Assembly: GCA_964633875.1 (NCBI GenBank)
Contig: CAZWKL010000005.1
Coordinates: 12,412 to 76,411, forward strand
DNA from: an uncultured Pseudomonadales bacterium
GTDB taxonomy: Bacteria > Patescibacteriota > Microgenomatia > UBA1400 > PJMF01
Length of the DNA: 64,000 nt
Direction: 5' to 3'
Shown: positions 33,378 to 34,505 of the stretch, one piece after another
Position numbering within the stretch: the stretch's first letter is position 1
How the letters are laid out: every line of letters begins with the position of its first letter
Notes under the pieces: generated by a model
Database searches by the model: none
Told to the model about the DNA's origin: nothing
Seen by the model: the letters and a program-made list of their open reading frames with translations, nothing else
Translations under genes and position numbers: made by a program

Positions 33378-33440
33378 ATTCTTTATGAGAGTTTGATCCG
33401 CCGCAGGCGGATGAACGCTGGCCAGCTTTTGCCGGTCCAA
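33378..33440 (+). other. degenerate duplicate of the 16S 5' end carrying a TCCGCC-GCA-GGCGGA hairpin (leader 'decoy')
   Basis: TTTATGAGAGTTTGATCC and GGATGAACGCTGG are identical to 16S positions 1 to about 40 at 33466 onward. The native CTGGCTCAGG is replaced by GCCGCAGGCGG, which keeps a hairpin. Confidence 0.7.
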
Positions 33441-34505
33441 CGTAACAAACAATCATGAAGACAGCTTTTTTATGAGAGTTTGATCCTGGCTCAGGATGAA
33501 CGCTGGCGGTGTGCCTTAGGCATGCAAGTCGAACGGGAAGTCTCCTTCGGGAGACAGAGAGTGGCAGACGGGTGAGTAACGCGTAGGAATCTACCCAGTA
33601 GTGGGGAATAGCCCACCGAAAGGTGGGGTAATACCGCATACGATCGCAAGATGAAATCTACCGCAAGGTGGAGCTATTGGAGGAGCCTGCGTGCTATCAG
33701 CTAGTTGGTGGGGTAATGGCCTACCAAGGCGACGACGGCTAGCCGATGTGAGAGCATGATCGGCCACAAGGCTACTGAGACACGGAGCCTACACCTACGG
33801 GTGGCAGCAACCGGGAATATTGCGCAATGGACGAAAGTCTGACGCAGCGACACCGCGTGTGGGAAGACGCTCTTCGGAGTGTAAACCACTGTGGCGAGGG
33901 ATGAAGTTCTGACAGTACCTCGCTAGAAAGCACCAGCTAACTACGTGCCAGAAGCTTCGGTAATACGTGGGGTGCAAGCGTTATCCGGATTTACTGGGCG
34001 TAAAGGGTCCGTCGGCGTCCCTGTAAGTCTCTTGTTCAAGCCCGAGGCTCAACTTCGGAAAGGCAAGGGAAACTGCAAGGATAGAGTTTGTTCGAGGAAA
34101 CTAGAATTCTTGGTGGAGGGGTGAAATCCGTAGATATCAAGAGGAATACCATGCGCGAAGGCAGGTTTCTAGGACATAACTGACGCTCAGGGACGAAAGC
34201 TTGGGTAGCAAATGGGATTAGAGACCCCAGTAGTCCAAGCTGTAAACATTCCTTGCTAGTTGTCCGCCTTTGGGTGGATGACGTAAGCTAACGCGTTAAG
34301 CAAGGCGCCTGGGGAGTACGACCGCAAGGTTAAAACTCAAAGGAATTGACGGGGGAGCGCACAACCGGTGGAGCATGTGGTTTAATTCGATACAAAGCGA
34401 AAAACCTTACCCGGATTTGACATGTACCTGCACGTCTGCCGAAAGGCAGACTTCTTCGAGAGTGGTACACAGGTGATGCATGGCTGTCGTCAGCTCGTGT
34501 CGTGA

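Follow-up and report, generated by a model that had tools for sequence, protein, structure and literature searches.

Insertions of homing endonuclease genes in fungal mitochondria duplicate the end of the gene that they enter, and mobile GC palindromes are known as the GC clusters of yeast and the double-hairpin elements of Allomyces. Integrative elements that target tRNA genes (attL/attR) carry DNA that restores the displaced part of the gene, leaving a partial duplicate behind, and SegB, a free-standing GIY-YIG endonuclease among the tRNA genes of T-even phages, promotes local duplications (PMC2330249, PMC13096335). Here we analyzed a partial second copy of the 5' end of 16S rRNA that stands in the leader of the 16S gene of an uncultured bacterium of the Patescibacteriota, within a stretch of 64,000 nucleotides (nt) of contig CAZWKL010000005.1 (hereafter, the window), and in which a native segment is exchanged for a GC-rich hairpin. 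The initial annotation had read this copy as a functional leader mimic. We found that the 87 nt that create it are absent from a relative, that similar copies at tRNA genes are absent from two other relatives, and that like copies flank small GIY-YIG open reading frames (ORFs) elsewhere. The 16S duplicate is probably an ORF-less footprint of a family of GIY-YIG cassettes, carried as a passenger in the pre-16S leader.

Compared with SegB of phages T4 and T6, the cassettes share a nuclease gene beside tRNA genes, presence or absence between close relatives, and the local duplication of tRNA sequence through short homologies (PMC2330249, PMC13096335). They differ in that their ORFs, at 79-98 amino acids (aa), hold the catalytic domain only and belong to the UPF0213/SLX1-like branch, whereas Seg proteins are multi-domain; moreover, a GC palindrome sits in the spare target copy, the cassettes reside in bacterial chromosomes, the window retains no ORF, and one target is a 16S gene. 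As with tRNA-targeting integrative elements, inserted DNA makes good the displaced part and the side of the core on which the crossover falls decides between an upstream and a downstream arrangement, but no integrase is present, the insert measures only 87 nt, and the duplicate spans both sides of the replaced core, while theirs ends at the crossover. With the fungal homing endonuclease genes and GC palindromes the locus has in common selfish insertions tolerated via a duplicated gene fragment, and short GC palindromes in non-coding transcribed DNA; the hosts and the nuclease branch are different, and the palindrome here sits specifically inside the spare target copy. The Escherichia coli rrn leader offers a further comparison: here, too, the 16S 5' end has a complementary segment in the leader (33314-33333), its predicted pairing partner, and a hairpin (at 32999) whose pairing is kept in a relative (L006) lies near the transcript start. 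Unlike in that leader, the duplicate and its boxA-like string form a lineage-specific insertion without a boxA match, and the ancestral leader features lie outside it.

The duplicate stands where the initial annotation had placed it, upstream of the real 5' end (Table 1). Direct reading and a repeat search showed block A (TTCTTTATGAGAGTTTGATCC) to be identical to its counterpart at 20 of 21 positions with a spacing of 87 nt, and block B (GGATGAACGCTGGC) at 14 of 14 with a spacing of 85 nt, correcting the single distance of 88 nt given before. Between the blocks, the native TGGCTCA gives way to GCCGCAGGC in the upstream copy, which with the flanking native TCC and GGA makes up the hairpin TCCGCC-GCA-GGCGGA. 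The hairpin thus does take the place of a native segment, but that segment was misread as a native hairpin: TGGCTCA holds GGCUC, which, following the established 16S structure, we take to be the 3' strand of helix 1 and the partner of GAGUU, and a free-standing CCTGGCTCAGG hairpin does not exist there. Since the Rfam 16S match begins at model position 9, corresponding to window position 33476, the downstream copy is the real 5' end. It is a complete 5' end, so that no splicing is required; a self-splicing intron or rRNA intervening sequence was rejected on this ground and because an Rfam scan gave no match at 33379-33465. The repetition of an exact 18-mer and an exact 14-mer inside 90 nt is far beyond chance, the expectation for an 18-mer repeat alone in 64 kb being ~1e-4 by our own arithmetic. 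Furthermore, an independent Logan contig of the same species (L005) is identical to the window at 615 of 615 positions across the 16S leader, duplicate included, and a corresponding duplicate at tRNA-Val is identical in four independent assemblies (L026-L028, L030). As independent assemblies reproduce both copies, the feature is real and no assembly artefact.

A relative provides the empty site. The divergently transcribed ORF next to the leader (31884-32879) has only two homologues among 5.8 billion proteins, and a contig of a relative whose neighbour protein is 79% identical (L006) covers the leader. Over 259 nt (window 33141-33399) the two leaders agree at 98%, with 254 matches, 3 mismatches, and 3 gap columns. 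The relative's leader passes directly from ...TTTGATCC to TGGCTCAGG, its junction reading ...AAATTCTTTATGAGAGTTTGATCC straight into TGGCTCAGGATGAACGC, and the duplicate is absent. Because this leader is uninterrupted, the window carries a clean insertion of 87 nt. Judged from the alignment, the upstream copy occupies the ancestral leader context; the relative's junction, which joins the leader to the native core, cannot derive from the arrangement in the window, since there CAGCTTTTT precedes the real copy. The spacer of the insertion is new sequence, with no tandem copy of neighbouring DNA. The site is thus polymorphic, with the insertion present in the window and in L005 and missing from L006, and the insertion is recent. 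This contradicts the conserved leader design initially proposed: the duplicate is missing from a close relative whose leader is otherwise 98% identical, the very absence that had been named beforehand as telling against it.

Two tRNA loci of the window show the same A-hairpin-B layout with an identical stem, in agreement with the initial annotation. The partial tRNA-Phe copy lies 32 nt upstream of its gene (3093-3168), its two blocks matching 3093-3112 (20/20) and 3124-3137 (14/14), and the partial tRNA-Val(GAC) copy lies upstream of the gene at 61132-61207, its blocks corresponding to 61126-61154 and to 61166-61178 (13/13). In both copies, TCCGCCTACGGCGGA replaces 11 nt, namely the D-stem 3' strand and the anticodon-stem 5' strand, and the acceptor 5' strand, D-stem 5' strand, D loop, anticodon loop, and anticodon-stem 3' strand are retained. 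All three window loci share the order L-A-h-B-spacer-A-n-B-R and the stem TCCGCC/GGCGGA, and each holds a partial copy of a stable-RNA gene, taken from the gene's end, interrupted in its core by a perfect GC palindrome and set in the same orientation. The tRNA-Phe loci of relatives, recovered through homologues of the gene that adjoins tRNA-Phe, again differ in presence and absence: the window and L007 have the copy, and it is absent from L008 and L011 (neighbour protein 66% in either case), where tRNA-Val and tRNA-Phe stand 3 nt and 45 nt apart, respectively. By this comparison, the ancestral tRNA-Phe locus lacked the copy.

Upon extending the comparison to L007, a relative whose neighbour protein is 91% identical, we found a tRNA-Phe copy downstream of the gene, with a small ORF standing between them. 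The same 11 nt are replaced in this copy, here by TCCGCC-ACA-GGCGGA. The 79-aa ORF is a GIY-YIG domain (Pfam PF01541, E=5e-16) whose family profile matches the UPF0213 structures 1zg2 and 1ywl as well as SLX1 structure-specific endonucleases; with the NCBIfam model of group I intron endonucleases it reaches only 20 bits, the cut-off being 56, and the PHROGs database gave no match to the ORF. Of 11 distinct GIY-YIG loci found as homologues of the L007 ORF, seven adjoin a tRNA gene together with its partial copy, which a perfect GC palindrome interrupts: L007 itself and six loci from unrelated samples, namely L016 with three ORFs, L017, L018, L021/22, L023, and L024/25. The 5'-type cassettes among them (L016 minus strand, L017, L018, L024) run from block A, which starts at +1, through the palindrome, a block B of 6-23 nt, and the ORF to the intact gene, which is the order in the window, with the ORF standing where the window has a spacer of 23-43 nt. 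In L021, the ORF-less upstream tRNA-Phe copy has the same segment replaced and resembles the window case. As hairpin-interrupted copies of the same kind stand beside small GIY-YIG ORFs in other genomes, upstream or downstream of the gene, they point to an origin from a mobile element. Stand-alone prokaryotic SLX1-like GIY-YIG proteins have been described solely as a minimal, uncharacterised branch (PMC1564403), and in the literature on GIY-YIG nucleases with tRNA duplication, Patescibacteria, or UPF0213, we did not find palindrome-interrupted target copies described.

We suggest that the 16S footprint would be a non-autonomous derivative or scar of small mobile cassettes whose main component is a stand-alone GIY-YIG nuclease gene of the UPF0213/SLX1-like branch. 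Entering stable-RNA genes in line at their ends, such cassettes would duplicate the terminal part and keep the gene intact; what remains would be a redundant partial copy A...B, its core broken up or substituted by a short GC-rich palindrome. At the 16S gene, the event would have added the hairpin, block B, an imperfect inverted A-h-B, and a fresh block A, 87 nt in all, with equivalent events at tRNA-Phe and tRNA-Val(GAC). Recombination of an element-borne A-h-B with the gene would yield both polarities: a crossover left of the core would give copy-...-gene (window, L016 minus strand, L017, L018, L024), and one right of the core gene-ORF-copy (L007, L016 plus strand, L021, L023); break-induced repair would give identical products. 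The cassette itself may move through a nuclease-induced break and homologous repair or through single-crossover integration. Within the spare copy, the palindrome might interrupt the nuclease target or the homology; alternatively, it might lend stability to the mRNA ends of the ORF, or might form a cruciform that the SLX1-like nuclease recognises. In the transcript, the insertion would fold on itself and sequester its own copy of the 5' terminus, leaving the ancestral leader pairing to the real copy, and maturation of the 5' end at the downstream copy should discard it along with the rest of the leader. A 16S cassette that still has its ORF, if it exists, would read GAGTTTGATC-N14-44-GAACGCTGG, then a GIY-YIG ORF, then a second GAGTTTGATC within 700 nt.

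Fold predictions are consistent with a self-contained insertion. On its own, the 87-nt insertion forms a predicted Y-shaped domain of -36.2 kcal/mol (z=-4.96) that takes up 63% of the ensemble. An imperfect inverted copy of A-h-B lies within it; 0 of 3000 shuffles attained its alignment score, and its duplex with block A is put at -15.9 kcal/mol (shuffle p ~0.0005). Such inverted copies are specific to the 16S insertion, none having been found at the tRNA duplicates, where structure beyond the hairpin is not significant (z -1.4 and -1.1). The initial annotation had asked how the leader and the 16S 5' end fold with and without the decoy, and the predictions suit a passenger: the helix between 33314-33333 and the 16S 5' end is predicted in both cases, the leader segment pairing with the real, downstream copy and enclosing the insertion as a closed side domain (the segment is identical in L006 and hence offers no covariation).

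The boxA-like string that the initial annotation had pointed to about 20 nt downstream does exist (GTAACAAACAATCA at 33441-33454, 19 nt past the upstream copy), yet its identity as a boxA did not hold up. It lies inside the 87-nt insertion and is part of the inverted copy, representing the CAAAC...TCATGAAGA arm of the pairing with block A. We tested a GCTCTTTAACAA-like consensus in the relaxed form GYTCTTTRANAA with at most 2 mismatches, and GTAACAAACAATCA was absent from the matches, which overall were not above chance; a better match, GCTATTTAAAAA with 1 mismatch, stands at 33139-33150 and is conserved in L006. Conservation in relatives likewise failed for GTAACAAACAATCA, L006 lacking the enclosing 87 nt. 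In E. coli, boxA lies upstream of the processing-stem strand, whereas GTAACAAACAATCA is found ~240 nt downstream of the 5' strand of that stem (33148-33200), outside the interval between promoter and stem. The motif TAACAAACRAT is not enriched in the window (6 found against 3.4 expected). At tRNA-Phe, the string TAACAAACGA resembles TAACCAACGA in the Val-Phe spacer of L007; since no upstream duplicate exists in that spacer, the string at tRNA-Phe looks like ancestral spacer.

Several observations weigh against a cassette footprint. No GIY-YIG gene was found in the 64-kb window by tblastn, nor next to any 16S gene, so that the link at 16S rests on the common layout and stem. Local alignment of the spacers with the 3' ends of cassette ORFs gave nothing that survives multiple testing (best p 0.02-0.04), so that these data do not support a "deleted ORF". 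The intact gene copy still holds the replaced core, leaving a simple homing-immunity logic incomplete. No tRNA lies near 4 of the 11 sampled GIY-YIG loci, and two metagenome pattern scans, for the 16S duplicate with hairpin and for a common tRNA D-arm followed by the hairpin, gave 0 matches each. L006, the sole informative out-group contig for the 16S leader, ends 17 nt into 16S. Finally, the stem occurs also outside gene copies, in the leader at 32999, in an intron at 35278, and in a native RNase P helix; it could represent a stable hairpin of a generic kind or a mini-element in its own right, and part of its recurrence may be unrelated to cassettes. The insert of 87 nt is itself too short for an ORF.

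The observations bear differently on the other explanations of the duplicate. That it is a functional RNA decoy, in which the mimic of the 16S 5' end (and of the tRNA 5' half) together with a boxA-like signal guides folding, processing, or transcription, we consider very improbable. The perfect identity of the flanks to the real gene at three loci, the strong structure of the insertion, the switch-like ability of its inner segment to pair with the upstream copy (-15.9 kcal/mol) or with the real 5' end (-13.3 to -16.6 kcal/mol), and the presence of TAACAAAC at 2 of 3 loci would suit such a device; but it is missing from the otherwise 98% identical L006 leader and from the L008 and L011 tRNA loci, its motif is unenriched, fails the relaxed consensus, and is found downstream of the processing-stem strand, the tRNA copies, the hairpin aside, are not significantly structured, and L007, L021, and L023 carry equivalent copies downstream of the gene. 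An assembly or chimera artefact has next to no chance of being true. Although exact tandem duplicates of the 16S start in unrelated drafts do look like assembly artefacts, L005 at 16S and L026-L028 and L030 at tRNA-Val reproduce the copies base for base, and typical assembly k-mers exceed the repeated blocks in length. Two unrelated processes, with replication or repair errors producing partial duplications and a separate, tiny mobile GC palindrome (TCCGCC-loop-GGCGGA) later colonising the spare copies, are decidedly unlikely. They would explain the stem outside gene copies in the leader (32999) and the intron (35278), with a near-copy in the trailer (36864), and an imperfect palindrome like that of the 16S insertion is what fold-back or template-switch synthesis would give; against this, the copies of tRNA-Phe (window, L007, L021), Val, and Arg (L023) carry the palindrome in one and the same segment, the 16S insertion has a spacer of new sequence and no tandem copy of its neighbours, and the association with GIY-YIG ORFs extends across unrelated hosts.

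A closer relation to the nuclease is assumed if the copy is an immunity or pseudo-substrate decoy, one that keeps the recognition flanks, lacks the cleavable core, and binds and neutralises the SLX1-like nuclease as DNA or RNA, the ORF-less copies then being selected orphan immunity modules. The GIY-YIG endonuclease I-TevI reportedly represses its own gene by binding an uncleavable mimic of its site, and here both flanks are kept with only the core lost, which in Phe, Val, and Arg comprises the same tRNA positions (~21-36); the flanks have stayed perfect though the copy is non-functional, and where an ORF exists the copies always adjoin it. However, in several cassettes (L017, L024) the palindrome is a pure insertion that replaces nothing, the L021 copy is partly translated as the C-terminus of the ORF, and a recent origin or gene conversion would explain perfect flanks equally well, so that we regard this decoy as unlikely. 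A wider claim, which we consider unlikely, is that SLX1-like GIY-YIG genes and a GC palindrome in a spare target copy constitute an undescribed mobile module of stable-RNA genes that passed from tRNA to 16S, with the hairpin copy as its working part (a recognised structure or a protective pseudo-substrate) and the ORF-less copies as selected orphan immunity decoys. Two further ideas were dismissed by eye: an integron attC-like reading of the 83-nt palindrome, for which the R-box motifs are a poor fit and an integrase is not evident, and a bridge-RNA or guide-RNA reading, as no recombinase lies nearby and an RNA of this kind cannot pair with flanks that are both same-sense copies.

We counted 6 occurrences of the stem TCCGCC-N3-6-GGCGGA in the window, where 0.01 would be expected. 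In a comparison with miniature inverted-repeat transposable elements (MITE) and repetitive extragenic palindromic (REP)-like sequences, the 83-nt unit is an imperfect palindrome of which only the 15-nt hairpin recurs (6 in 64 kb, counted in the window only). The leader hairpin at 32999 has the same stem as the duplicate's hairpin; L006 has TTCGCC-ACA-GGCGAA in its place, a two-sided change that keeps the pair, and owing to this pair-preserving version the leader hairpin is older than the insertion. The first insertion within the 16S gene contains TCCGCC-CCA-GGCGGA (35278-35292), and the 16S trailer has an imperfect stem copy, TCCGCCGGAAGCGGA, just before the processing-stem strand (36864-36878). 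In a class A RNase P RNA on the minus strand (54738-55090), TCCGCCCCCGGGCGGA belongs to a native helix whose loop has an insertion of 6 nt; the 94.8 bits of this RNA fall just below the Rfam gathering score of 100, and the default Rfam scan missed it for this reason. An inserted palindrome was rejected for this hairpin (54966), which aligns to the native helix with only the loop insertion and gives no evidence for mobility.

The promoter-like site upstream places the whole duplicate inside the transcribed leader. The duplicate lies ~180 nt inside the processing stem, in a leader portion that 5' maturation removes. The 16S gene ends with GGATCACCTCCTT at 36746-36758, and two insertions break its Rfam match into pieces. 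The first (34506-35400) holds a LAGLIDADG_2 ORF (34587-35237, E=4e-31), and the second (35698-36600) a LAGLIDADG_1 ORF (36066-36587, E=3e-23) and a match to group II intron D1-D4 (36000-36082). No 23S gene follows downstream of 16S within the window (36760-40303), where protein ORFs at 37123-37581 and 37602-40166 (854 aa) precede tRNA-Ile (40229-40303), and the rRNA genes appear unlinked. The tRNA genes for Leu(CAG), Leu(GAG), Val, and Phe, which form a cluster of ~400 nt in L008 (3879-4284) and L011 (1626-2035), are split in the window (881-3168) by ~1.45 kb with a GT87-like ORF of 498 aa (923-2419) and by 430 nt with a 79-aa ORF without a Pfam match (2703-2942).

Among the cassettes, the GIY-YIG ORF of L021 (P0123, 1201-1497) reads into the hairpin-substituted tRNA-Phe copy, so that its last ~25 residues are derived from tRNA and palindrome. 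The tRNA downstream of the L017 ORF (822-960) was not called by ARAGORN and appears interrupted after the anticodon-stem region; by analogy with the group I introns reported in tRNAs of Patescibacteria (PMC13011429), it may contain a group I intron. The GIY-YIG homologues of L013 (1978-2259) and L015 (1976-2261) have no tRNA nearby and are bracketed by inverted repeats of 14-16 nt (ATCCCGTTAATGTT / AACATTAACGGGAT), possibly a different mobile configuration. A scan of genome contigs for tandem duplicates of the 16S 5' end gave 4 matches (L001-L004), none of them hairpin-substituted. L001, L003, and L004 (Paenibacillus and Arthrobacter 'Soil' isolates, all drafts) repeat the first ~75-100 nt of 16S exactly and in tandem, with N runs adjoining in L003 and L004, which suggests assembly artefacts; the match in L002 (Candidatus Auribacter) is an internal 16S helix containing AGAGTTTGATCC.

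Table 1. Features of the 16S leader and tRNA loci in the window, and layout of GIY-YIG cassettes at tRNA genes elsewhere.
Feature	Position	Strand	Composition or basis
Promoter-like site	32947-32974	+	TTGACA-16-TAAGAT with extended TG; consensus scan only; conserved in L006
Leader hairpin near predicted transcript 5' end	32999-33014	+	TCCGCC-AACT-GGCGGA; motif count, fold, L006
Pre-16S processing stem, 5' strand	33148-33200	+	Pairs with trailer 36853-36914; RNAduplex -59.3 kcal/mol
Ancestral leader segment complementary to 16S 5' end	33314-33333	+	Fold prediction; identical in L006
Block A, upstream copy of 16S 5' terminus	33379-33399	+	Matches 33466-33486; ancestral leader context, junction common to L006
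Hairpin h	33397-33411	+	TCCGCC-GCA-GGCGGA; sequence reading, motif count, fold
87-nt insertion relative to L006	33400-33486	+	One of several equivalent placements, bounded by repeated blocks
Block B, upstream copy of 16S nt ~27-40	33409-33422	+	Matches 33494-33507; repeat search
Imperfect inverted copy of A-h-B	33422-33462	+	Includes GTAACAAACAATCA; alignment and duplex shuffles
Real 16S 5' end	33466-33507	+	A 33466-33486, TGGCTCA 33487-33493, B 33494-33507
16S rRNA gene, approximate ends	33466-36761	+	Insertions ~34506-35400 and ~35698-36600
Hairpin-substituted partial tRNA-Phe copy	3012-3060	+	A 3012-3031, h 3032-3046, B 3047-3060
Hairpin-substituted partial tRNA-Val(GAC) copy	61052-61108	+	A 61052-61080, h 61081-61095, B 61096-61108
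L007 cassette			Intact tRNA-Phe, 79-aa ORF (ATG overlaps tRNA 3' end), tRNA-Phe copy (nt ~6 to 3' end)
L016 cassette		-	tRNA-Ser nt 1-36, hairpins, next 9 nt, ORF, intact tRNA
L016 cassettes		+	Intact tRNA, then twice ORF and hairpin-substituted 3' copy
L017 cassette			22 nt, 20-nt palindrome, 12 nt, ORF, tRNA
L018 cassette			Partial copy, palindrome, ORF, tRNA-Arg
L021/22 cassette			ORF-less upstream tRNA-Phe copy, tRNA-Phe, ORF, downstream copy; same replaced segment
L023 cassette			tRNA-Arg, ORF, copy with TCCGCC-TGC-GGCGGA (the window's exact stem); GC-rich unrelated host
L024/25 cassette			Copy holds two palindromes

Read as the footprint of a GIY-YIG cassette family, the 16S instance is an ordinary consequence of that family and no new RNA device. 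For rRNA biology this is deflationary, as the apparent mimic would be a recent passenger insertion and no conserved processing or antitermination device. In practice, the universal 27F primer site is present twice in such duplicates, which can mislead 16S annotation, primer mapping, and assembly. GIY-YIG proteins of the minimal UPF0213/SLX1-like type occur widely and, to our knowledge, have no known role; their recurrence beside tRNA genes and a spare, palindrome-interrupted copy offers a lead for mobile-element biology, and the ORF-less form of this signature reaches a single-copy 16S gene. If the cassettes are mobile, a selfish gene could occupy essential RNA genes without splicing, by duplicating the gene end, and this would account for odd partial tRNA and rRNA fragments in Patescibacteria-like genomes.

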